DNA of 36,291 nt from a virus, in UHGV virus genome UHGV-0200858; one strand, given 5' to 3'. The translations under genes and the position numbers were made by a program. The notes below the pieces were generated by a model that searched no databases, was not told where the DNA came from, and saw only the letters and a list, made by a program, of their open reading frames with translations. This document shows, piece after piece, positions 31-21,000 of the stretch (positions are counted from its first letter, which is position 1; each line of letters opens with the position of its first letter).

Positions 31-300
31 ATGAACATTACCAAAGCAATCCATAACTATGCTCGCCGCCGTGGAATCGAACTTCAACTCGAAGATGAGC
101 AGGTTAGATTCTGGGAGATAGAACAAGATTGTGAATGGATGTTCAGCTATTCGATTGCTCAATGTGGTTGCTTGTTCTGGAAAGGTAATGTGTATCTTCC
201 TCGCGATATTAAAGAAGAACTTCCGGCGATGATTGGCACCGATAAGAAGTTAAAGGAAGTCTTAGATTTTATCTACAAAGAGTTTATTAGCAAGAAGTAA
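31..300 (+). CDS. hypothetical small protein (89 aa)
   Basis: ORF with a good Shine-Dalgarno (GAGAGGA) upstream of the ATG, followed by a hairpin terminator; no recognisable domain. Confidence 0.5.
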   Translation: MNITKAIHNYARRRGIELQLEDEQVRFWEIEQDCEWMFSYSIAQCGCLFWKGNVYLPRDIKEELPAMIGTDKKLKEVLDFIYKEFISKK

Positions 301-310
301 TTTCTAATTT

Positions 311-337
311 GGTGGGTGCAATTCCCACCGCTTTTTA
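311..337 (+). terminator. rho-independent terminator (approx coordinates)
   Basis: GGTGGG / CCCACC stem with 7 nt loop followed by CTTTTT, directly after the 31..300 ORF. Confidence 0.55.
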
Positions 338-353
338 AACTGGAGAATCAAAC

Positions 354-434
354 ATGTTAGCTTTTATCTCATTCGTGGGAGGTAGTCTCACAACTATGAT
401 CAGCCTTTCTTATATTGTCGTTAGTATGGGGTGA
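354..434 (+). CDS. possible tiny hydrophobic peptide (26 aa), approx coordinates
   Basis: ATG preceded by GGAGA; translation MLAFISFVGGSLTTMISLSYIVVSMG is almost entirely hydrophobic; below ORF-track size cut-off, hand-translated. Confidence 0.15.
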   Translation: MLAFISFVGGSLTTMISLSYIVVSMG

Positions 435-437
435 GCA

Positions 438-563
438 ATGAAACAATTTCATGATGGCATTTCATCTAAGACATTCAAGAAAGAATATAGCGGATTGTGT
501 ATTAACTGGATTGATTTGATTGGTGCGGTTGTGTTTGGTCTGGTAATTAGCATCAATTTTTAA
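438..563 (+). CDS. possible small membrane peptide (41 aa), approx coordinates
   Basis: ATG preceded by GGGGTGAG; hand translation MKQFHDGISSKTFKKEYSGLCINWIDLIGAVVFGLVISINF has a C-terminal hydrophobic helix. Confidence 0.2.
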   Translation: MKQFHDGISSKTFKKEYSGLCINWIDLIGAVVFGLVISINF

Positions 564-604
564 CGATATAAATATATCGTAATTCATTCAAAGAGGATTC
601 AATT

Positions 605-946
605 ATGAAAAAGACTATCTACGCAATTATTGTTTCTGTGTGTGTTGGTGGCATCGGTGGATTTGTTTGTGGGTATGACTATTCCGATACTCAACATCAA
701 GAGACTATCCGGTCAACTAAGGCTGAGATTAAGGATCTGAATCAGGAGATTAGCCAGTTAGAAAATGCTCTCTCACTCAAAGATAGTGAATATAGCGAGG
801 TTTATGCAGAGAAACAAAAATATTGGAAAGAGAAAGATAATCTCGTCGTTTACGGGATGAAATTGTGTAAGAGCATGAAGGATGAGCGCAGTTGCTTAAT
901 GGAACTTGCCCTTAAAGGTAACGTGACCATCGACTTCAAAGACTAA
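605..946 (+). CDS. membrane-anchored coiled-coil protein (113 aa)
   Basis: N-terminal hydrophobic helix (IYAIIVSVCVGGIGGFVCG) then a heptad-like coiled coil with C-terminal Cys residues; AAGAGGA SD; architecture resembles i-spanin/Rz-like or superinfection-exclusion proteins. Confidence 0.5.
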   Translation: MKKTIYAIIVSVCVGGIGGFVCGYDYSDTQHQETIRSTKAEIKDLNQEISQLENALSLKDSEYSEVYAEKQKYWKEKDNLVVYGMKLCKSMKDERSCLMELALKGNVTIDFKD

Positions 947-977
947 TTAAATTCTAATAACAAGAGGAAATTCAATT

Positions 978-1223
978 ATGAAAAAGATTATCGCTGGTAT
1001 CGTTCTTTCTTTAGGTCTGGTTGGTGCTGCCACTGCCGATCAATATGTACAGGGTGATAGTGTTAAACGTGCAGCCGTTGTTACTTCCCTGAATCAATTG
1101 TGTAGTGAAATAGCTGTACTGGCTGGTCAACCTAATGATGAAGAACTTATTACCGCGTGTATCTGGAGTCATGTAGAGGATATTAATATTCGTGATGCTC
1201 GACTGAAAGGTAAAAAATACTAA
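978..1223 (+). CDS. small secreted protein with signal peptide (81 aa)
   Basis: N-terminus MKKIIAGIVLSLGLVGAATA-DQ is a typical Sec signal peptide with AxA cleavage site; no lipobox Cys; shares N-terminus and RBS context with the 605..946 gene. Confidence 0.5.
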   Translation: MKKIIAGIVLSLGLVGAATADQYVQGDSVKRAAVVTSLNQLCSEIAVLAGQPNDEELITACIWSHVEDINIRDARLKGKKY

Positions 1224-1239
1224 TGACTTACTAACCAAT

Positions 1240-1275
1240 GCCCCTATCGTTATAATACGCGGTAGGGGCTTTTTT
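1240..1275 (+). terminator. rho-independent terminator (approx)
   Basis: GCCCCTATCG ... CGGTAGGGGC stem followed by a T-run, after the 978..1223 gene. Confidence 0.6.
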
Positions 1276-2968
1276 GTTTGGAAATGGTATGAAAACTAAA
1301 CTGTATTCGTATATTCGCTTCTCGTCTATGCGTCAGAATGATGGTTCGAGTTATGAACGACAAATCAGGATGGCTAGAGAGATTGCGGCAAAGTATGACC
1401 TTGAACTGGTAAATGATTATCAGGATCTGGGTGTATCTGCGTTTAAGGGTGCTAACTCTAAAACAGGTGCGCTATCTCGTTTCCTTGATGCAATTGGTAG
1501 ATCCGTTCCTGTTGGTAGCTGGCTATTCATTGAAAACTTGGACCGTTTATCCCGTGCCGATATTGTCAGTGCGCAGGAGTTGTTCCTTTCGATCATTCGT
1601 CGGGGGATCACTATCGTTACGGGTATGGATAACAAGATCTACTCGCTGGATACTGTTACCGCTAACCCGATGGACCTGATGTTCTCCATCCTTCTATTCA
1701 TCCGCGGTAACGAGGAAAGCCAGACTAAGCGCAATCGTACTAACTCAAGCGCATTGATTAAGATTAAAGCTCATCAAGAAAATCCACAAAATCCGGCTGT
1801 TGCAATCGAGGAAGTTGGAAAGAATATGTGGTGGACTGATACCACATCTGGTTATGTGCTTCCTCATCCGGTCTTCTTCCCTATTGTTCAGGAGGTTGTG
1901 GAATTACGGAAGAATGGACGTTCAACCGCCGAAATACTGGATCACCTTAACGAGACATATACACCACCACCAGCGGTTAGTAATAAGAAACATTCAAAAT
2001 GGTCACGGGCAATGGTTGAAAGATTGTTCCATACCCGCGCTTTGATTGGTATCAAGGAAGTCTCGGTAGATGGCGTTAACTATGAGTTAAACAATTATTA
2101 CCCGCGTGTTATTGATGACCCTACGTTCTATCACCTTAAGAAAAATATTGGTGCTAGAGCATGGAACTTCGGAGACAAGGAAGAAGTTAAACCGATCCCC
2201 CTGCTTAGTGGTATTGGCCTATTGAAATGTGATCATTGCGGTTGCGCTATGGTTAAAGTGAAGGGAACGAACAAACGTTCTGACCAGTATCGTTATACAT
2301 GTGATGCGACCCGTTCACGTAGACTTGATTGCGAGCATCCAAACTGGAGTTTTCGAGGTGATCAATTAGAGAAAGCTGTATTGCAATTGCTGGCTGATAA
2401 AATCTGGATTGCTGAGGATAAGGCTAACCCGGTTCCGGCGTTGAAAGTACAGATTGATGAAATATCACGCAAGATTGATAACCTGATCGCCCTTTCTGCT
2501 ATGACAGGAGCAACGAAGGAACTAGCCGATCAGATTACTGCCCTTAATAGCGAGCGTGAAACACTCTACAATCAGATTAAGATGGCAGAAGAGGAAATGT
2601 ATTCTGTAGACTCTCAAGGCTGGGAGAAGCTCGCAGAATTTGATTTAGAAGATGTTTACAATGAGGAACGAATCAAGGTTAGATTCAAGATTAAGCAAGC
2701 TCTAAAGCGGATCGGGTGTAGCAGGATTGACAGAAACAAAAACTTGTTTGTACTGGAATACATCGATGGAAAGACCCAGAGAGTTGTAATAGAAAATTCA
2801 AGAGGAACGAGGAAAGGACAAATATTTGTCGATTTGAAGACTATCAATGATAGGCAGATTCTGGAAAGTAACGGGCTTGTTTTGCATCCATGTTTAGACA
2901 TGCTGACAGATAAAGACTGGAAACCAGAAGAGGAAATACCAGGTCCATTACAGGAATTTGGAATTTAA
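1274..2968 (+). CDS. large serine recombinase (resolvase/invertase N-terminal catalytic domain + recombinase domain + zinc ribbon + coiled coil)
   Basis: N-terminal YSYIRFSSMRQ...R motif typical of serine recombinase catalytic domain; central Cys cluster CDHCGC...C...C (zinc ribbon); C-terminal coiled coil; 564 aa is typical of the large serine recombinase family. Track start is a TTG; first ATG is 15 nt downstream (about 1289). Confidence 0.85.
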   Translation: MFGNGMKTKLYSYIRFSSMRQNDGSSYERQIRMAREIAAKYDLELVNDYQDLGVSAFKGANSKTGALSRFLDAIGRSVPVGSWLFIENLDRLSRADIVSAQELFLSIIRRGITIVTGMDNKIYSLDTVTANPMDLMFSILLFIRGNEESQTKRNRTNSSALIKIKAHQENPQNPAVAIEEVGKNMWWTDTTSGYVLPHPVFFPIVQEVVELRKNGRSTAEILDHLNETYTPPPAVSNKKHSKWSRAMVERLFHTRALIGIKEVSVDGVNYELNNYYPRVIDDPTFYHLKKNIGARAWNFGDKEEVKPIPLLSGIGLLKCDHCGCAMVKVKGTNKRSDQYRYTCDATRSRRLDCEHPNWSFRGDQLEKAVLQLLADKIWIAEDKANPVPALKVQIDEISRKIDNLIALSAMTGATKELADQITALNSERETLYNQIKMAEEEMYSVDSQGWEKLAEFDLEDVYNEERIKVRFKIKQALKRIGCSRIDRNKNLFVLEYIDGKTQRVVIENSRGTRKGQIFVDLKTINDRQILESNGLVLHPCLDMLTDKDWKPEEEIPGPLQEFGI

Positions 2969-3041: not shown

Positions 3042-4226
3042 TTAGGCAGCGTCTAAAGGGCTTAAATCAAGTTCTAGGTCTTCCGGTTCCAAATCAGCTA
3101 ACTGTGCATTCATCCACTTAGCTAAATCTTCATCGGTTACGACAAAATCCGGTTTTTCTTCCCATTCATTAAGATACATCGGACGATCTGGATTTGCTGC
3201 GATATATTCATTAATGAAGTTTAATGCTTTCTTGAGAGTTTTAATCGGGCGTGTTTCCGTCCATCCATCCGGTACATCATGTTTTGAGGCAGTCTTACCC
3301 TTAACATGAATCTTTAACCCTTTCTCTAAGTCGATTGCTTGCCATCCCTTTTCAAACAGATGATTGAATATCAATTCATGTTTGTATGTGGATAATTTGG
3401 CTTGTTGTTGCATTCTCTTTTTAGAGTTGGAGGCGAAACCGATTTTAATAAATTCATCTCCTAATTTCTGAATATAGAGATAAGTCGGACGTGTCTTGTC
3501 AATTCTTCTTAGATTATATTCACCTGTTTCTAATGAACGTTGGTTTGAAAGGCAATCTGGACAAATCAGGATTCCACGGTCGCAAGGTTCACGGGTAGTT
3601 AAATCCCAATCCCCATGATGCGGACAATTACAGCGCAAGAGTGTCTCTCTTACTCCCTTCTCTTCTGACAACCAACAAACGAAGGTGTATCCGAATTCTT
3701 TACACAATTCCTTAATCTGTGCTTCTCTCTTAGCTCTCAATTCAGTGAGCGTATTACATCCGTTTCTACGAGCCAGATTGCTCTCTTTGGTGCAGCATGA
3801 ACAGTTTAAATTTCTACGGAATGCCAGATTAAGAGGGATAGTGAATTCTTCGTTGTGATTCAAGCAGAGAAATTTTGCTTTGGTTCCTTTGACGTGATTG
3901 TATTCACCATCCCAACCTAAAAACTGTTTCCCTTCCTGTTTCCCTCGTTCGGTTAGCTGGATTTTATATCCTTCCTCATTCCTTTTAAGGCTTCCCCCAT
4001 TGATTTGATTTAACTGTTTCAGTGCATGAATGCTGGAAAGTCCGGTAGGTTGATATGACACCTGAAAACGGGCTTCTACTCCTGATACATACGGTAAAAC
4101 AAAACCATCGAAGGTTAATCCGTGTTTCTCACACTGTTTAATGATTCTGGCTTGCACTTCTTCCGGTGTCTTCTGGTTTGGGTGAGTCTTAACAAAAACA
4201 ATCTCGTTTGCAAATGCTAGTTTCAT
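3042..4226 (-). CDS. GIY-YIG-like (T5orf172-type) domain protein with N-terminal Cys/His zinc-ribbon-like repeats; putative homing-endonuclease-like nuclease
   Basis: C-terminal half contains YLYIQKLGDEFIKIGFASNSKKR...E motif resembling GIY-YIG/T5orf172 fold; upstream CxxC/CxC/HH clusters (LNCSCC, RCNCPHHG, CPDC); paralogous to the 4381..4950 product. Confidence 0.55.
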   Translation of the reverse strand: MKLAFANEIVFVKTHPNQKTPEEVQARIIKQCEKHGLTFDGFVLPYVSGVEARFQVSYQPTGLSSIHALKQLNQINGGSLKRNEEGYKIQLTERGKQEGKQFLGWDGEYNHVKGTKAKFLCLNHNEEFTIPLNLAFRRNLNCSCCTKESNLARRNGCNTLTELRAKREAQIKELCKEFGYTFVCWLSEEKGVRETLLRCNCPHHGDWDLTTREPCDRGILICPDCLSNQRSLETGEYNLRRIDKTRPTYLYIQKLGDEFIKIGFASNSKKRMQQQAKLSTYKHELIFNHLFEKGWQAIDLEKGLKIHVKGKTASKHDVPDGWTETRPIKTLKKALNFINEYIAANPDRPMYLNEWEEKPDFVVTDEDLAKWMNAQLADLEPEDLELDLSPLDAA

Positions 4227-4380: not shown

Positions 4381-4950
4381 ATGATTCCAGTAATGGCTAA
4401 AGATATTGTTTTTACTCCTAAATCATCCCGTGCTGTAACTCCACCAGCATTAGAACAACGCATTCTTACTCACATCAAAGATAATGACTTACCGTTAGTC
4501 TTTCATGGCTTTCTGGGTGAGTTTAAAGGGCTTCACACGAGAATTGCTCTTACATGTACTCGCTGCGGTGATAGAGCCGACAAATCAGCTACTAACCTGC
4601 TTAATGAAGGCAAACGCTGTGTATGTTTCAAGAGTGATTATTTTCAATATAAAGCGGGTGTACCATATCTCTATGTGATGCAATCCGGCGATATTGGTAA
4701 ATTTGGTGTAACAAAATCGATTATCAAACGTAGGGTTAATCTGGGCTTACGTAATCCCGGTCATAACTTTGATATTGTCTATGCTCGTGAAATGCCATCA
4801 ATGAAACATGCGCTAGCCACTGAGCGAACAATAAAGAGAATGTTGGATGTGGGTATAGGCGGGATTGAATACGGCAAAACTGAAACATTCCACTACTGCA
4901 ATAAATCACTAAACAATATAAAGAATATTGCAAGTGTGGAGTGGAACTAA
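4381..4950 (+). CDS. GIY-YIG-like (T5orf172-type) domain protein with zinc ribbon (189 aa)
   Basis: CTRCG...CVC Cys cluster followed by YLYVMQSGDIGKFGVTKS...RRVNL...E motif; stop overlaps the start of the downstream helicase gene (TAATG). Confidence 0.55.
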   Translation: MIPVMAKDIVFTPKSSRAVTPPALEQRILTHIKDNDLPLVFHGFLGEFKGLHTRIALTCTRCGDRADKSATNLLNEGKRCVCFKSDYFQYKAGVPYLYVMQSGDIGKFGVTKSIIKRRVNLGLRNPGHNFDIVYAREMPSMKHALATERTIKRMLDVGIGGIEYGKTETFHYCNKSLNNIKNIASVEWN

Positions 4951-6440
4951 TGCAAGATATTAACATTCATTTTCAAGATTACAGTTTCGTTAAGGTTGAA
5001 TGCTCTCCTTCTATCGGAATGGAATTAAGAGATTATTTCTCGTTTGAGGTTGAAGGGGCTAGATTTAGCCCCCGCTACAAATATTCCGGCTGGGATGGAA
5101 AGATAAGACTGTTTACGCATGAGAACACCTTACCAATCGGATTATTGAAAACATTGGGTATCTTCGCTAAAAACATGGGCTATAGCGTATGGGTAGACCC
5201 CAGATTGCTTGAGAAGGAAGATGTAACCAAAGAATCAATTGATTCATGGATTGACTCTTTAGAAGTGTATTCCGGTAGCAATAAAATCAATCCTTACTGG
5301 TATCAAAGAGAGGCAGTATTTCAGGGTATCCATAATCGCCGTAGAATGCTGGTTCTTCCTACCAGTGCCGGAAAGTCATTGATTGCTTGTATGCTGTCTC
5401 GTTGGTACTTAGAGAACTACACCGGAAAGATTCTAATCATTGTCCCGACTACATCGCTGGTGGTTCAAATGAGGGATGATTTTGTCGATTATAGGCTATT
5501 CCCTTATGAAGCAATCCATACAATGATGAGTGGTAGCGGGAAACATCCGGGAGACAGGTTAATCACTGTTTCAACATGGCAATCAGCTTGCAAGATGCCT
5601 CCTGAATGGTTCCGACAATATGGAATGTTGATAGTTGATGAATCGCATCGTGCCAGCGCAAAGAATATCACCAATATCATCAACGGAATGAATCATTGTC
5701 AGTTTAAAATCGGTATGACTGGTTCCCCGAAAGAATCAAAGTGCCATTTAATGCAATATGTCGGGTTGTTCGGTGATATTCAGAAGATAGTAGCAATCAA
5801 GCAATTGATGGATGACGGACAAGTTACCCAGCTTAAAATTAATGCTCTCTTCCTTAAGTACAAAGATGAAGAATGTAAAGCAATGCGGGGCAAAGATTAT
5901 CAGGAAGAGATTAAATTCATCAATGCTCATAAGGTAAGGAATAAACTGGCTTGTAATTTGGCCTTAAAACTCGCCAGGAAGCAAGAAAACGTATTTTTGA
6001 TGTTCCGGTACTCTAAGCATGGAAAAATGCTTTATAATGCGTTACAGCGCGTTTACGATAAGGTTTATTACGTTTCCAGTGAGATTACCACCGCCGAACG
6101 CGATGCCTTAAAGAAAATGGCTGAAAATGAGAAAGGATTGATTGTAGTTGCCTCCTATGGTGTTTTCTCTACTGGCGTTTCAATTAAGAATCTTCATCAT
6201 GTCATTTTCGGTCATCCAGTGAAGGAATCAACCATTGTCCGGCAATCAATAGGACGTGCTCTTAGGAAACATGGTAGTAAAGCAATTGCGTATGTGTGGG
6301 ATTTGATAGATGTGATTTGTTCGAAAGACAAGAAAGGAAAATATACACGCAAGAATTATGCTTTAACTCATGGCCTCCAGAGAATCAATACTTACATATC
6401 AGATCGCTTCGAATATGTAACGAAAACAATCGAGATTTAA
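4941..6440 (+). CDS. uvsW: SF2 DExH-box helicase, UvsW-like
   Basis: Walker A LPTSAGKS, DExH box IVDESH, motifs ILIIVPTT, VYYVSSE, IVVASYGVFSTG, QSIGRALRKHGSK; overall layout and several motifs recall T4 UvsW (from memory, not searched). Track start is GTG; likely ATG start at about 4950 overlapping upstream stop. Confidence 0.8.
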   Translation: MELMQDINIHFQDYSFVKVECSPSIGMELRDYFSFEVEGARFSPRYKYSGWDGKIRLFTHENTLPIGLLKTLGIFAKNMGYSVWVDPRLLEKEDVTKESIDSWIDSLEVYSGSNKINPYWYQREAVFQGIHNRRRMLVLPTSAGKSLIACMLSRWYLENYTGKILIIVPTTSLVVQMRDDFVDYRLFPYEAIHTMMSGSGKHPGDRLITVSTWQSACKMPPEWFRQYGMLIVDESHRASAKNITNIINGMNHCQFKIGMTGSPKESKCHLMQYVGLFGDIQKIVAIKQLMDDGQVTQLKINALFLKYKDEECKAMRGKDYQEEIKFINAHKVRNKLACNLALKLARKQENVFLMFRYSKHGKMLYNALQRVYDKVYYVSSEITTAERDALKKMAENEKGLIVVASYGVFSTGVSIKNLHHVIFGHPVKESTIVRQSIGRALRKHGSKAIAYVWDLIDVICSKDKKGKYTRKNYALTHGLQRINTYISDRFEYVTKTIEI

Positions 6441-6483: not shown

Positions 6484-6747
6484 ATGATTAGCTTTAAACG
6501 TTTTTTGGTTGAGGCCGCTATTGACGGTTTTATGAGTAAGATTTATTCTTGTAATACTATCGAGGGATTAAATGAACTTGAGGCATATTATGAGAAGCGC
6601 AAGAAAGAAACAGAATTGAAACCTGCTGATGATATTTCGATCCGTGATGCCATCGCCGGACGACGCAAGCAACTGGAAGCGGAGAACGAGCCGGATGAGG
6701 AGCCAGAAGAGGATTTTTCTATCATCAATTTGTGCCAGATAAAATAA
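6484..6747 (+). CDS. small acidic protein, possible UvsW.1-like helicase partner (87 aa)
   Basis: Immediately downstream of the helicase, acidic C-terminus (EAENEPDEEPEEDF); position and size recall T4 uvsW.1; followed by terminator. Confidence 0.35.
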   Translation: MISFKRFLVEAAIDGFMSKIYSCNTIEGLNELEAYYEKRKKETELKPADDISIRDAIAGRRKQLEAENEPDEEPEEDFSIINLCQIK

Positions 6748-6791: not shown

Positions 6792-7145
6792 TCAGCCATT
6801 CCATCGAGATTTTTTCGACCTGCTATCAATATGCGTAAAGGTTTTATATTTGCCTAGACCATATTGATTGGGATATTTCCCGTTAAGATAAGCATGGACA
6901 ATATCAGGAGAAACACCCTTGATCACAATGTCACACGCTCGACCGCGAACATGGTAGCTATTGGTTGCCCCGCCTACATTCTTGTTATGAGTCGGACAAC
7001 GGTTCCCACTGTTAATAATTACTGGTTTCCCGAAGTGTTCTCGTACATCCTCAAGAATTACCAGTAATTCAGCATCGATAGTATCATAATCACATTTTCC
7101 GCATTTACATTTGAATTCCTTGCGGGAAAAATGCTTACTTAACAT
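6792..7145 (-). CDS. endolysin, peptidase M15 family (L-alanyl-D-glutamate / VanY-like zinc peptidase)
   Basis: Motifs SRKEFKCKCG, SGNRCPTHNKNVGGATNSYHVRGRACDI and FTHID match the H-x6-D ... H zinc site of M15 peptidases; no signal peptide. Confidence 0.8.
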   Translation of the reverse strand: MLSKHFSRKEFKCKCGKCDYDTIDAELLVILEDVREHFGKPVIINSGNRCPTHNKNVGGATNSYHVRGRACDIVIKGVSPDIVHAYLNGKYPNQYGLGKYKTFTHIDSRSKKSRWNG

Positions 7146-7154
7146 ATTACCCCC

Positions 7155-7502
7155 TTAGATCATTTCGAAGATATAACCAATAAAGCGCATACCCTTGATA
7201 TAATAAGGAGCAGTGCCTACACACACCGCGCGTGCATCGCCCAGACAGTTAAAGCTATAAGGATTAACTACATCAACTTCTTGCCCTACACGAAAACGAT
7301 ACTTAGGACGTTTAGCCAATGTGGCGACACAAAACACGGTCCCTTTTTCATGATCGCGGATACATTCTTTATATTGTTTATGTTTAACTCTCTTTGCCTC
7401 AAAATCATGAGTCATGGATTCTGGGCTAATGCCATTAATAAAAATACCGGAAAGCTGATCGACCGGATAAGTAGGAAATTCAGTAAAAATATTTTTAGCC
7501 AT
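7155..7502 (-). CDS. hypothetical protein (115 aa)
   Basis: ORF tightly packed between endolysin and upstream gene; no recognisable motif. Confidence 0.4.
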   Translation of the reverse strand: MAKNIFTEFPTYPVDQLSGIFINGISPESMTHDFEAKRVKHKQYKECIRDHEKGTVFCVATLAKRPKYRFRVGQEVDVVNPYSFNCLGDARAVCVGTAPYYIKGMRFIGYIFEMI

Positions 7503-7541
7503 GTTATACCCCCCATAAGATTCTATGAGGGTATTTATGGA

Positions 7542-8225
7542 TTAAACGTATCTCATGCGCGATTTAATGTGCTTATTGATGTTTTTAAGCATCATTTCCT
7601 CGTTGCTTTCCCATGATCCCATTGTCGAATAACGAGTAGAAATTTTGTCCGACTTAACGGCAACAATTCGCTTACTCTGTTTCTGTGTGCGTTTCTCTAA
7701 GCGACGTTTTGCCACCGCCGATCCATTCTTAGCGCGTTTAGTTCGGGATTTCTTAGGCTTGTACTTCTTCATGATAAAAGTCCCTTCCTGGTTCTCTACC
7801 TTGATGAAGTTGCCGTTTTCGATGTTACGCATCATCTTACCGCCTTTGATGGCCTTAATGTTCCCGTGGGAGTCTAAGACCTTGCCGTTGGCGATTGGAA
7901 CTAGCTTATTGATTTTGCCCCCATCGAAATAGTGTTTCAGATAGTCGTCCTGACTGCCGATCTTCTTATCCTTATCCCTTGCGCCCTTAATGAAGATTTG
8001 GTGTCTGGTCCCTGATCGGTTCTTATAGTTGGTATTACCTACAGCTTGTTGAGTCCAGCGAGTAGGTCTATCAACATTCTTGTTAATCTTCTTCTGGAGT
8101 GCTCTGGAAGCAAAGATCGCCCCTTCCCCTAGTGCCCTTTCGAATGTATCGGTTGCCTTTTCAGACCATTGCCGTAACGCTTTCTTAGTCCTTAGAGCGT
8201 TTCGTTTATTGGTACTGGTTGCCAT
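7542..8225 (-). CDS. hypothetical highly basic protein (227 aa)
   Basis: K/R-rich throughout (KRNALRTKKALRQ, KKYKPKKSRTKRAK); start overlaps the stop of the upstream small ORF. Confidence 0.4.
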   Translation of the reverse strand: MATSTNKRNALRTKKALRQWSEKATDTFERALGEGAIFASRALQKKINKNVDRPTRWTQQAVGNTNYKNRSGTRHQIFIKGARDKDKKIGSQDDYLKHYFDGGKINKLVPIANGKVLDSHGNIKAIKGGKMMRNIENGNFIKVENQEGTFIMKKYKPKKSRTKRAKNGSAVAKRRLEKRTQKQSKRIVAVKSDKISTRYSTMGSWESNEEMMLKNINKHIKSRMRYV

Positions 8226-8226
8226 G

Positions 8227-8397
8227 TTAGCCCCCTAATAACGAAAAGACCCCCGCCAGTGTCCTTAGCAATTGTTCATCCACGGTCATAGCCGGGAGTT
8301 CAAGCCCAAAGGACGTTAGCAGAGGTCTAATAGCTACGTTATAAGTGAGGGCGACAATCAAGAGATAACCAAAATATTTCTTAAGTTTATTCTTCAT
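8227..8397 (-). CDS. possible small membrane protein (about 56 aa), candidate holin-like
   Basis: Hand-translated MKNKLKKYFGYLLIVALTYNVAIRPLLTSFGLELPAMTVDEQLLRTLAGVFSLLGG; one hydrophobic helix; stop overlaps start of 7542..8225; below track cut-off, coordinates approximate. Confidence 0.25.
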   Translation of the reverse strand: MKNKLKKYFGYLLIVALTYNVAIRPLLTSFGLELPAMTVDEQLLRTLAGVFSLLGG

Positions 8398-8417
8398 ATA
8401 TTCACCCCTTTTTATTA

Positions 8418-8696
8418 TTATTTTTGCTTGAGTAAATCAATAACTTGGTCAAATTTAGCATCCATTGCAACCACTTTCTTTTCTATACCGTGAAGGGTTT
8501 GTTCCATGCGATAAACTCTTTCGGCAATTTGATCGTGGTTATTCTGCATCGTTTCAAACTTTTGATTAAACAATGCATCATTGGATTCTAATTTAGACAA
8601 TCTATTTTCTGTGGCTAATTGATTTCGGTGGAGTCTCCAAAGCCCACCACAAATTAAGGCGATAACACCGATACCGCCATATATAATTTCAGTCAT
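8418..8696 (-). CDS. membrane-anchored coiled-coil protein (92 aa), candidate lysis/spanin-like or holin-associated
   Basis: N-terminal TM helix (IIYGGIGVIALICGGLW) followed by coiled coil; located between tail fiber gene and endolysin region. Confidence 0.4.
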   Translation of the reverse strand: MTEIIYGGIGVIALICGGLWRLHRNQLATENRLSKLESNDALFNQKFETMQNNHDQIAERVYRMEQTLHGIEKKVVAMDAKFDQVIDLLKQK

Positions 8697-18034: not shown

Positions 18035-21000
18035 TCATTTACAGGATTTAATAGCCGCAAGTTCAGCTTTAACAGCTTTCAACTCTTCGTTCATCGCATC
18101 ATACTTAGTCGTTAATTCCTGAAAGGCTTTCACGAAAAGAGCATTGATACTAGAAACAGAAATAGTTTTAATTTCTCCTGGATTTTCGGTATCTCCATCG
18201 CTGCAAACGTGCACAGCTTCCGGCATAACTTTTTCCACATCTTGAGCAATGACACCTAATTCGCGTCCAACCACTGTATCATCAGAAAGTGATTTAACTT
18301 TATCGTAGGAATATACGGTTAAGCTGTTTAATTTATCCAGCGCACCTTCTTCCAATTCTTCCTTGTTGATCTTAAGACGTTCATCAGATCGAATATGCAC
18401 ATCGTTAAAGCTACCGTTACCCGGCGTGTAAAAGAACCCATCGTGATGGAACTCAAATACAGCTTGAGGGTGTCCGTTATCAGGTGAGTTTTCCGCAGAT
18501 CCAACACGAATAATTGCTTGTCCCCAATTGTTAGGGATACGACGCATACCAAAATCGACGGCAGTTGTATACCCTTGATTGGTGATTAAACTTCTTGCTT
18601 TAACAATCGGATAATAACAGTCTTGTCCAACATAGCCATGATCGACGAATATTGGCGCTTCCACTCGCCACTGATTACCCCAATCACCTGGTTGACTAGC
18701 GGTCCAACGTTCACCATGAACATATAATCGAGCGTTATTAACATGAACCATTTCGACGCCTTTTGGACTTAATGCAATATCCCCAGCGTTCGTAAGATTT
18801 ATCGCGGCATTAGTAGCATAGCTATAGAACGCTAATCCATTATCACCACCGCCTTTACCAATATACCAGTTGTTGTTGTCAGCACACGTACCCAACAAAT
18901 ATACAGACGAATCACCACTTTCGGCATTCATGATAATTGCATCAGATCCGCGATTAATTTTAAGTTTACCAAAGAAGGAGTTTTTAATGGTATTATCACC
19001 CAATCGTTCAAATTCTGCGAAAAATCCTTTTGAGTCACGAAGACTTAAAACGTTATTTCGACCTGTATTGCTTGCCCCCCAATGGACGAGTTCCATATAG
19101 TCCATAGATTGACGAGAACCAGCTTTAAAGAAAAGATTGTCCTCAAGACGAGTGCTACCATCAATCCCCAGATGTAAACACCGAGCGGTTTCAGTACCAC
19201 CTAAATATAATCCACCGTCCGCAAAATCATAGCTGAATGGTCTGCGATTATTCCAACTACCAAAAGAATCTTTTAAATCGGTAGTAAGAATATGGAAGCT
19301 AGAACCATCATTGCGTAACATCAAACCATAGTTACCGCCTTTGACAGCCAAACGAGCATTTTCAGACAATGCGACTTCGCTATTCATTACAATTTTCTGG
19401 CCTTTACCACCAGTAATATGTAATTCACCATCTTCAATCAGGTTTATCGAGTTTTGACCGTTATCGTTCCACCAAATAAAATCTTTGGTCTGCGCATCAC
19501 CGAAGCCAAACCAACCATTACGAACATCTGTACCAGTTCGATAATCAAAGAAGTTTAAGTGGCATGATTCGTTTGGACCACGACGAAAATCAATTGCTGA
19601 GTTTCCACCTAAACCGCCATCAATGGTCATTCTACGAATATGCAAACCGGACGATGCCGAAAGCAATAATTGTTGGTTAACATCTTCATAACCAGTTGCA
19701 AGGCGATATGACTGATCATCAACAGTTTCATGCCAGATTGTAGCTGGTGCAGAACTACGGAAGCGACGCAACATTTTCTTAGCATTTGTTTGTTGTTCGT
19801 TCAAATGCTCAATGTCATATTGGCCTTGATGGTTTCCGCCAAAATTTAACGTCCCACGGTTGCTAAAGTTATTAAACGATGAAATGTTAAGAGCATCAAA
19901 AATTTCATCTGCAACAGGTTTTTCACCGCCCAGGTATTCAGGAGTATCCAACAGGTTTAAAGAAACACCACCGGAAGAAACTTGATATTCTGCTAAAACA
20001 AATCCTGTATGTGCACCATAGTAAGCGTAAAGATCGTAATTATCACCATCGGTAGGAATTGCGCAAAAATATTGTTCGTAATACCAAATGCTATAATAAG
20101 CATTGAATACAACACCTTTCGGGCTATTGTTGCCGCAACGGATCACCAGTTCAATAACATTGGCTTGTCCATTCTGTCCGACGTTATAACCGTTACCACC
20201 CACTAAACGGATCTTAGCCGTACGACCGTGTTGTTGTGGCATTGTCAAAGTGCCTAGTTTAAACCAACCGCCCTCGACCCCAAAATTAAGCGTCTTCTGG
20301 AAAAGTCGGTCAATTTCTGCTTTCGAATATGCGCCAATTTCGGCAGGAGTAGGTTTATCACCCTCGTGATACATGCGGTGAGAATATGCCAAATGACCCA
20401 ATTCATCATAGCCGTATGTTCTTACAGTAGCATGTGGATTAGACCCATAAGTGAACTCGAAGCCACGAGCATGATTAACACCGGATGGATGTGGAACATG
20501 CAAGATCATAGCAATATGATCAGCTAGATCATTGGTACGGAATGCACCAAAGTAATCAAGATTACGCGCACTTGGATCATCAAAATAGTTTGCGGTCTTA
20601 GACAGCAAATAACCATCAGTGTAAGTGTTTACGTGTTTTTTGATGTACTTACCGTCACTCGATCCGTCGGCTGCATCAATACGGCTTTCTAAGCGCGCCA
20701 GTTCAGAATCAGTGTAAGACTTGTTATTGTCAACTTTGCTATGAATTGCCGTATTTTTGGCTTCAACATCACGGGTTAATGCTGCGACGTTATCCGCTGC
20801 CTCTTGCTTATTGGCTGCAATCACACCAGTAAGGTTATTGTAAGTGTCGGTTAATTGATTTTCCGCATAAGTTTTATTATCAGCGATAGTGCGATCAGTC
20901 TCGGCCTTAATCAAATCAACTTTGTCATTGATTGCTTTGTCATTGATTGCGATGGTTGCATCAGTACGGGATTTAATATCATCAACTTTTTTATTGATGC

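Follow-up and report, generated by a model that had tools for sequence, protein, structure and literature searches.

Upstream of the integrase gene of the virus genome UHGV-0200858, a DNA of 36,291 nucleotides (nt; "the window" below means this whole stretch), lie four small open reading frames (ORFs), which we call ORF26, ORF41, ORF113, and ORF81 after the number of amino acids (aa) that they encode. Comparison with related prophages of Escherichia coli suggests that they form the integrase-proximal accessory locus of a temperate phage integrated in ycdX, organized in two layers. The first would be a constant, translationally coupled pair of very small membrane peptides, ORF26 and ORF41, carried by every member of the phage family. 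The second would be a cargo slot, delimited by a junction (a palindrome, a ribosome site, and the gene start ATG-AAA-AAG-AyT-ATC) and a terminator hairpin, where homologous recombination, either in the junction or in the signal-peptide DNA that cassettes share, probably inserts, replaces, and deletes mutually unrelated genes whose products are exported or membrane-anchored. ORF113 and ORF81 would thus be two independent cassettes that stand in tandem here by chance, the first probably encoding a periplasmic coiled coil that dimerizes, is anchored in the inner membrane, and has its tip stapled by a disulfide, the second a small disulfide-bonded periplasmic protein. Such cargo would provide moron-type functions to the lysogen, most likely superinfection exclusion. 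Genome comparison establishes that the four genes are real, how the locus is built, and that its cassettes turn over, and it has revealed one recombination product; taken as a whole, including its functional part, we consider this reading probable, with moderate confidence. An earlier note on this DNA had described an integrase-proximal cassette of small envelope proteins, with four ORFs preceded by their own Shine-Dalgarno-like sequences, an adjoining integrase, a membrane anchor and coiled coil in the 113-aa protein, and a signal peptide in the 81-aa protein. This general idea stands and each of these elements was recovered (Table 1), the topology and the signal peptide as predictions; what does not stand is the tandem duplication by which the note explained the locus.

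Cassette turnover in the cargo slot

The first 4.4 kb of the window have matches, with 85-96% identity, in 58 of 5,426 complete E. coli genomes, and the content of the cargo slot differs among them: ORF113 and ORF81 are both present in 8, ORF81 alone in ~20, and a gene of a 135/137-aa type in ~25, counts for which one representative of each class was checked and the others were assigned by identical coverage and span. In an unbiased sample of 25 IMG/VR loci, fetched with the palindrome ACGATATAAATATATCGT as search motif, ORF113 occurs in three. Variable presence between collinear close relatives was thus seen for ORF113, ORF81, and other cargo, and not for ORF26 and ORF41. The sister prophages also reveal where the exchanges take place. 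In L024, the upstream side of the first junction is fused to the ORF81 coding sequence and exactly the segment 620-961 is gone, with the crossover inside the junction; this matches exactly the product that would be expected from recombination between two junction copies with deletion of the ORF113 gene. L005 and L007 have lost ORF81 through a deletion of 945-1259 (breakpoints 944 and 1260). In L006, identity to the window ends with the signal peptide, whose last codon is at nt 1036, after which a different 137-aa protein is encoded and identity is recovered at hairpin 2. L028 keeps the anchor of ORF113 followed by the body of an unrelated 153-aa protein. On the right side, identity among the variants resumes at 1240 or 1260. 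The slot houses still other cargo elsewhere, namely a 75-aa secreted protein in L033, secreted proteins of 137/135 aa in L030 and L031, and a 348-aa CapR/T5orf172 nuclease in L032, each of them preceded by the same ribosome site.

What these cassettes have in common is how they begin. The two junction copies of the window are identical at 28 of 29 nt, apart from a 2-nt indel that makes the segment 29 to 31 nt long, and they include the Shine-Dalgarno-like sites AAGAGGA ahead of ORF113 and AAGAGGAAA ahead of ORF81. The motif has just these two occurrences in the window, with none expected from 100 shuffles. The earlier note had correctly pointed out the near-identical N-termini and ribosome-binding contexts of both genes, reading them as the trace of a tandem duplication of one ancestral gene followed by divergence, and both proteins do begin with MKK.I and a hydrophobic stretch. 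Nevertheless, the identity runs out at about codon 5, the N-terminal hydrophobic regions share 7 of 23 residues, and BLASTP between the two proteins yields just a 6-residue chance match (E = 7.6). Their predicted folds differ as well, a 62-residue helix plus a short helix in ORF113 against a two-helix hairpin in ORF81 (AlphaFold models with a moderate mean predicted local distance difference test score, pLDDT, of ~69 each). Nor are the two genes inherited together: besides the genomes with ORF81 alone, L005, L007, and L015 have ORF113 without ORF81, and L006 has ORF113 together with the 137-aa gene. Moreover, four other unrelated proteins are headed by the same junction and signal peptide, and distant ORF113 homologues have no ORF81-like neighbour. 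The note had itself named unrelatedness of the 113-aa and 81-aa proteins as the observation that would tell against its explanation, and unrelated they are in sequence and predicted fold; the tandem-duplication reading is therefore largely refuted, and paralogy of the two genes is hardly credible.

The junction and signal peptide head at least six different, unrelated cargo genes in the sister prophages, where the exported cargo proteins all have nearly the same signal-peptide DNA. In addition, over 53 nt the region of the second junction shares 87% identity with the beginning of RB49p262, which encodes a secreted protein with an LprI domain in the virulent Krischvirus RB49. This stretch of ribosome site and signal peptide was the sole match when the cluster was searched with megablast and tblastn against 50,697 phage records. 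Finding the same start DNA before unrelated cargo and in RB49p262 argues that the duplicated ~30-nt segment is a recombination adapter rather than a sign of paralogy. The locus thus offers a clean natural example of accessory-gene turnover in prophages by means of a ~30-nt adapter made of a translation start and an export signal, and a warning that near-identical gene starts are not to be read as paralogy.

Table 1. Positions of the genes and sequence elements of the locus and its surroundings in the window
Feature	Position	Strand	Description
ORF89	31-300	+	First prophage gene after attL; member of phrog_6147
Hairpin 1	310-330	+	GGTGGG-TGCAATT-CCCACC followed by a T-run; terminator-like, -11.4 kcal/mol; left mosaic boundary
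ORF26	354-434	+	26 aa; GGAG 9 nt before the start
ORF41	438-563	+	41 aa; Shine-Dalgarno-like GGGGTGAG overlapping the ORF26 stop, 3 nt before the ATG
Palindrome ACGATATAAATATATCGT	563-580		AT-rich; separates the constant pair from the cargo slot; weak hairpin, -5.7 kcal/mol
Junction copy 1	591-619	+	Ribosome site and first 5 codons of ORF113
ORF113	605-946	+	113 aa; predicted N-terminal Gly/Ser/Cys-rich membrane anchor, variable coiled coil, C-terminal Cys-x8-Cys knob; optional cassette
Junction copy 2	962-992	+	Ribosome site and first 5 codons of ORF81
ORF81	978-1223	+	81 aa; predicted Sec-type signal peptide and ~60-aa helical hairpin; exchangeable cassette
Hairpin 2	1240-1269	+	11-bp stem followed by TTTTTT; intrinsic-terminator-like, -20.4 kcal/mol; right mosaic boundary, directly upstream of int
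Integrase	1289-2968	+	Large serine recombinase, the prophage integrase; Pfam Resolvase, Recombinase, and Zn_ribbon_recom; phrog_95 integrase, E = 5e-62

The constant ORF26/ORF41 pair

In sharp contrast with the changing cargo, ORF26 and ORF41 were intact in all 45 related loci compared (from public assemblies, complete genomes, and IMG/VR). According to hydropathy, the ORF26 peptide is hydrophobic over its full length, with zero charged residues, and, being 25-27 aa long across loci, it probably forms a single membrane helix, while in ORF41 a basic N-terminus is combined with a hydrophobic stretch near the C-terminus (residues 25-39). The position of the ORF41 ATG, 3 nt past the ORF26 stop, suggests translational coupling.

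The annotation record could be taken to mean that both are chance ORFs in a conserved non-coding leader, with ORF113 and ORF81 as the sole genes: PGAP mostly omits the two tiny ORFs, ORF26 has been called once among 15 billion proteins, and the ORF26 allele of L033 lacks an obvious Shine-Dalgarno sequence. For ORF41 there is one PGAP annotation (WP_274540528.1), and its cluster comprises 20 variants in E. coli and Shigella. The way in which both sequences vary makes a chance origin extremely improbable. Among alleles of the same length, third codon positions account for 17 of the 24 variable sites in ORF41 (p = 2e-4) and for 8 of 11 in ORF26, that is, for 25 of 35 when both are combined (binomial p = 5e-6), and the ratio of nonsynonymous to synonymous substitution rates (dN/dS) is 0.13-0.19 for ORF41 and 0.09-0.18 for close pairs of ORF26. 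The eleven protein variants of ORF41 have either 40 or 41 aa, the shorter forms resulting from an in-frame 3-nt deletion. ORF26 exists as three deeply diverged alleles (MLAFISFVGGSLTTMISLSYIVVSMG, MNLLISFVCSVFLAILSSVYIVVVAVG, and MKLLELLILSIFSAFVLAVYIVVIV), all of which keep its position, frame, length, hydrophobicity, and a ...VYIVV... motif, the frame being maintained in the two alternative alleles despite ~50% nucleotide divergence. Together with the 45 intact copies, this is strong evidence, comparative in kind rather than translation data, that ORF26 and ORF41 are genuine genes, as the earlier note had supposed. A prophage family that occurs in ~1% of the complete E. coli genomes thus carries, without exception, two membrane-peptide genes that usually go unannotated (ORF26 almost never annotated, ORF41 sporadically).

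The size and hydrophobicity of these peptides are like those of type I toxins. Their strict conservation amid neighbours that turn over, at the end of a prophage, could likewise indicate toxic membrane peptides of type I toxin-like or abortive-infection kind that stabilize the prophage or kill infected cells, the exported proteins being unrelated passengers. Yet, neither Pfam nor NCBIfam reveals homology to Hok, Ldr, Ibs, Sho, TisB, or Zor, PADLOC gives no match, and Rfam, searched at a permissive threshold, gives no match with E < 0.04 and none to a toxin-antitoxin family, although an RNA not yet described could be present. There is also no antisense promoter-like site in 300-605, the sole nearby match on the minus strand (654-626) being inside the optional ORF113, and the locus has two coupled ORFs instead of a single, tightly repressed one. 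We consider a toxin role unlikely.

The pair could instead be a core regulatory module of the phage, expressed after infection rather than in the lysogen, either as small membrane peptides that tune a protease or transporter in the host membrane and so bias the lysis-lysogeny decision, or as upstream ORFs that control the expression of int and the cargo. This would fit with its presence in every family member just upstream of int and in the same orientation, with the apparent translational coupling of the two ORFs, and with the failure to find a lysogen-type promoter; the circular genome may be the template from which the operon is transcribed. Against it stand the strong terminator that separates the unit from int (hairpin 2), the lack of similarity to lambda CIII or any other known regulator, and, for purely regulatory leader ORFs, the conservation at the amino-acid level reflected in dN/dS values of 0.1-0.2. 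We grant this explanation a small chance and favour the two-layer reading, in which the pair is the constant part of an accessory locus.

Predicted envelope proteins of the cargo slot

The cargo products are inferred to act in the cell envelope because of their hydropathy, the conserved A-x-A cleavage site of ORF81, and the invariant pairs of cysteines predicted to be periplasmic. The ORF113 protein has a hydrophobic N-terminus (residues 8-22), and its AlphaFold model (mean pLDDT 69, 75-90 in the helical parts) contains helices at residues 28-89 and 94-105, with two cysteines that are invariant in the family, Cys88 and Cys97, at the turn between them. The anchor and a C-terminal LCKxMKDERxCLMELA motif are conserved in the family; the coiled coil is variable. 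In the P0002 allele exactly 7 residues, one heptad, are deleted, an indel length that supports a coiled coil. Homologues of ORF113 come exclusively from E. coli with the addition of three distant ones, the only distant relatives retrieved (31-41% identity) when 1.84 billion representatives were scanned in full with HMMER. All three belong to other ycdX-integrated prophages, near the opposite prophage end. One of these other-end homologues, that of L025, has its own promoter (TTGACA-16-TATACT, 11 of 12 matches) and its own terminator (6336-6359), and so has the classical moron layout of promoter, gene, and terminator; that promoter is not conserved in the phage family of the window. In the IMG/VR sister locus L022, ORF113 is frameshifted after codon 13, which could be due to cassette decay or to a sequencing error.

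ORF81 starts with a predicted signal peptide (MKK / IIAGIVLSLGLVGA / ATA↓DQ), to be cleaved after the A-x-A at residue 20, a site invariant across 15 sequences except for its variable middle residue (ATA, ANA, and ASA). Helices are modelled at residues 27-48 and 55-76 (pLDDT 75-90 there, mean ~69), and Cys42 and Cys61 are invariant. The gene exists as two alleles that are ~75% identical, with a dN/dS of 0.18.

An N-terminal anchor with the N-terminus inside, a periplasmic coiled coil, and periplasmic cysteines, all predicted, are also the attributes of Rz-type i-spanins. ORF113 might accordingly be such a spanin, or an RI-like antiholin with a releasable signal anchor, acting late in the lytic cycle with ORF81 and the tiny peptides as partners or regulators. 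Five of the seven ORF113 family members weakly match phrog_739, 'Rz-like spanin' (E = 1e-5 to 4e-4, the best 1.2e-5), and single members match phrog_214 and phrog_1327. The anchor is rich in Gly, Ser, and Cys, like signal-arrest-release (SAR) domains, and no spanin is recognizable elsewhere in the window. Matches of this strength may, nonetheless, reflect a composition of transmembrane (TM) segment plus coiled coil, for which a PDB sequence search likewise returns keratin, prefoldin, and Lpp. After a lipobox scan and hhalign comparisons with lambda Rz and with the phage's own 92-aa TM-coiled-coil protein, we rejected the spanin hypothesis because of the absence of a lipoprotein partner (no lipobox ORF is embedded, overlapping, adjacent, or anywhere in the window), the hhalign probability of 0.5% against lambda Rz, the optional nature of the gene (missing from 86% of the sister prophages, being present in 8 of 58), and its distance from the endolysin (6 kb away, on the opposite strand, outside the lysis cassette). 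ORF81 in turn has a signal peptidase I site (A-x-A↓D/E) and no Cys at +1. A role in lysis is thus very unlikely, and ORF113 fits better as one of several exchangeable envelope cassettes.

Relation to known systems and likely function

Morons, a concept reportedly due to Juhala and Hendrix, are known from lambdoid and other temperate phages, with examples such as bor and lom of lambda and gp15 of HK97. The locus resembles them in that small accessory genes, often for envelope proteins, interrupt a series of conserved phage genes close to one end of the prophage, vary in presence among close relatives, and are flanked by a terminator, here the hairpin and T-run downstream of the cargo. Unlike morons, it has in the window no dedicated promoter that we could find, several cassettes depend on one junction and export signal, and two tiny genes are constant. 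Small envelope proteins are also known to exclude superinfecting phages, among them Imm and Spackle (Sp) of T4, lactococcal Sie2009, encoded between int and the repressor gene, and Sim of P1. The proteins of the cluster are predicted to share with them their small size, an N-terminal anchor or signal peptide, and a location in the inner membrane or periplasm, and Sie2009-type genes are also found beside int; in contrast, there is no similarity in sequence or fold, since PADLOC gives nothing specific and Foldseek searches of the AlphaFold models against BFVD and PDB give nothing with E < 1 and no match to T4 Spackle or RI. Judging from position, architecture, turnover, and the analogies with lambdoid morons and with the exclusion proteins Imm and Sp of T4 and lactococcal Sie2009, the cargo would most likely protect the lysogen against other phages.

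Several points weigh against this assignment or against the two-layer reading in general. The exclusion function is derived solely by analogy with other small prophage envelope proteins. No homologue with a known function was found for any of the four proteins with PADLOC, Pfam, NCBIfam, PHROGs, PDB, or Foldseek; Pfam, PHROGs, NCBIfam, and PADLOC searches with the four ORFs and the alternative cargo gave only composition-type coiled-coil matches, and PDB sequence-profile searches no specific one. For the functions that the earlier note had proposed for such cassettes (superinfection exclusion, lysis regulators, or toxin-like peptides), the family, defence, and RNA libraries likewise yielded no specific match. 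The constant tiny pair is not moron-like, as its presence never varies, and may belong to the core functions of the phage. Recombination was deduced by genome comparison rather than observed. The main weakness concerns expression: no convincing sigma-70-like promoter for the ORF26-ORF41-cargo unit was found upstream of ORF26 in this phage, the one 9/12 match inside ORF26 being no better than chance, and hairpin 1, directly upstream of ORF26, looks like a terminator. Promoters upstream of ORF89, in the prophage state, or across attP from the right end were looked for and none was found. Expression of the unit in the lysogen is therefore presumptive.

A bolder version of the same idea would see in the locus a plug-and-play export cassette system, whose start and signal-peptide adapter lets co-infecting phages trade periplasmic effector domains into a fixed slot and whose ORF26/ORF41 pair is an undescribed two-peptide membrane module needed for the action or regulation of the cargo. 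On this view, the nucleotide sequence of the adapter would be kept near-identical even between the temperate family and the virulent, T4-like Krischviruses. Were this version true, ORF26 and ORF41 could be, for example, a new superinfection-exclusion or lysis-lysogeny device; we find it doubtful.

Cassette exchange of a related kind has been described in T4-type phages, where promoter-early stem-loops (PeSLs), which combine a consensus early promoter and a G/C stem-loop, act as homology patches flanking ORFan genes and allow their modular shuffling (Arbiol et al. 2010, PMC2839356). RB49, the phage whose hyperplastic region contains the gene with the start so similar to that of ORF81, is the one in which PeSLs were defined (PMC2839356). 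As in PeSLs and the internal-protein loci of T-even phages, short repeated conserved motifs accompany ORFan genes that are inserted, deleted, or replaced, a stem-loop terminator marks the boundary, and natural variants have their breakpoints in the motif (L024), at the end of the signal peptide (L006), or at 944 and 1260 (L005 and L007). Unlike in PeSLs, the adapter consists here of a ribosome site and the coding start of an export signal, not of a sigma-70 promoter and a GGGG/CCCC stem-loop, neither hairpin of the locus repeats the other, and the exchange takes place in a temperate siphovirus-type prophage. The locus is, in this respect, an ordinary accessory-gene hotspot with cassette exchange, a case of ordinary mosaicism of a known kind that leaves current concepts unchanged. 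Its practical value is in annotation and in candidate lists, with at least five orphan families of exported proteins as candidates for phage exclusion or envelope phenotypes.

Hairpins and promoter-like sequences

Hairpin 1 is conserved in all loci, with either TGCAATT or TGTAATT as the loop. In L033 (1122-1138), where the T-run is missing, changes on both sides preserve its stem, a hint that hairpin 1 does more than simply terminate transcription. The palindrome ACGATATAAATATATCGT is invariant in the alignment save for C/T at its second base. The loop of hairpin 2 contains a perfect TATAAT (1251-1256), which in L028, where the hairpin is different, is located directly before the stem. With a candidate -35 element (TTACTA) that has 3 of 6 matches, the hairpin 2 region may be a composite of terminator and int promoter.

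Prophage setting and neighbouring genes

The window corresponds to nearly the whole of a ~36.9-kb siphovirus-type E. coli prophage integrated inside ycdX, and the ORF113 protein is 99% identical to proteins of E. coli chromosomal contigs. The chromosomal neighbours of the prophage are csgDEFG-ycdZ-ycdY, including the curli operon, and a truncated ycdX. At the left attachment site (attL), homology to the intact ycdX of K-12 stops 9 nt left of window position 1; the right prophage end, with the second ycdX fragment, is ~360 nt past the end of the window. The four-ORF cluster is placed between attL and the large serine integrase. An integrase search with one genome per species gave no informative relative, just a 512-nt fragment with 96% identity and one weak partial match of 43%, and the literature on ycdX prophages and on the protein accession contained nothing relevant. 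Sister prophages occupy three other chromosomal sites, by ybgA/phr (L015), by a FAD-oxidase gene near the suf operon (L028), and in codB (L030); where compared, their serine integrases are very similar, with ~94% identity at the nucleotide level for L015 and a 561-aa homologue in L028.

In the integrated prophage, where ORF89 starts 40 nt from attL, no promoter-like site precedes it, and its transcription may be limited to the circular genome. Its homologues in phrog_6147 occur in phAPEC8-like lytic phages. At its position, sister prophages have an allele of 74% identity, a further gene of 128 aa (named 'beta/alpha barrel domain' protein by PGAP), or, in some of them, both, and identity to the window returns at 295.

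On the minus strand, the region 6792-8696 contains an endolysin-like Peptidase_M15_3 gene (6792-7145) and genes for two small membrane proteins, one of 56 aa and one of 92 aa with a TM segment and a coiled coil. The window has no lipobox ORF, so neither an o-spanin nor a u-spanin is recognizable.

Two genes for CapR/T5orf172 nucleases (GIY-YIG-like, of homing-endonuclease type) are found between int and uvsW, at 3042-4226 (minus strand) and 4381-4950 (plus strand). A third nuclease of this kind is the one in the cargo slot of L032 (2811-3857), behind the ribosome site of the exported cargo proteins.

Several genes resemble those of T4-like phages. UvsW shares 72-75% protein identity with Krischvirus UvsW, UvsW.1 is also encoded (window positions 4941-6440 and 6484-6747), and UvsY is found in relatives. 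A tail-fibre segment (~18212-20600) is 81-84% identical at the nucleotide level to the distal subunit of the Krischvirus long tail fibre. A T4-like origin of the window, considered in view of these UvsW, UvsW.1, UvsY, and tail-fibre matches and of the nuclease genes, was rejected, as the region is found in E. coli chromosomes and the prophage encodes a lambda-J-like tail tip besides its serine integrase. The presence of T4-like genes in a temperate siphovirus-type prophage implies recent exchange between temperate and virulent coliphages.

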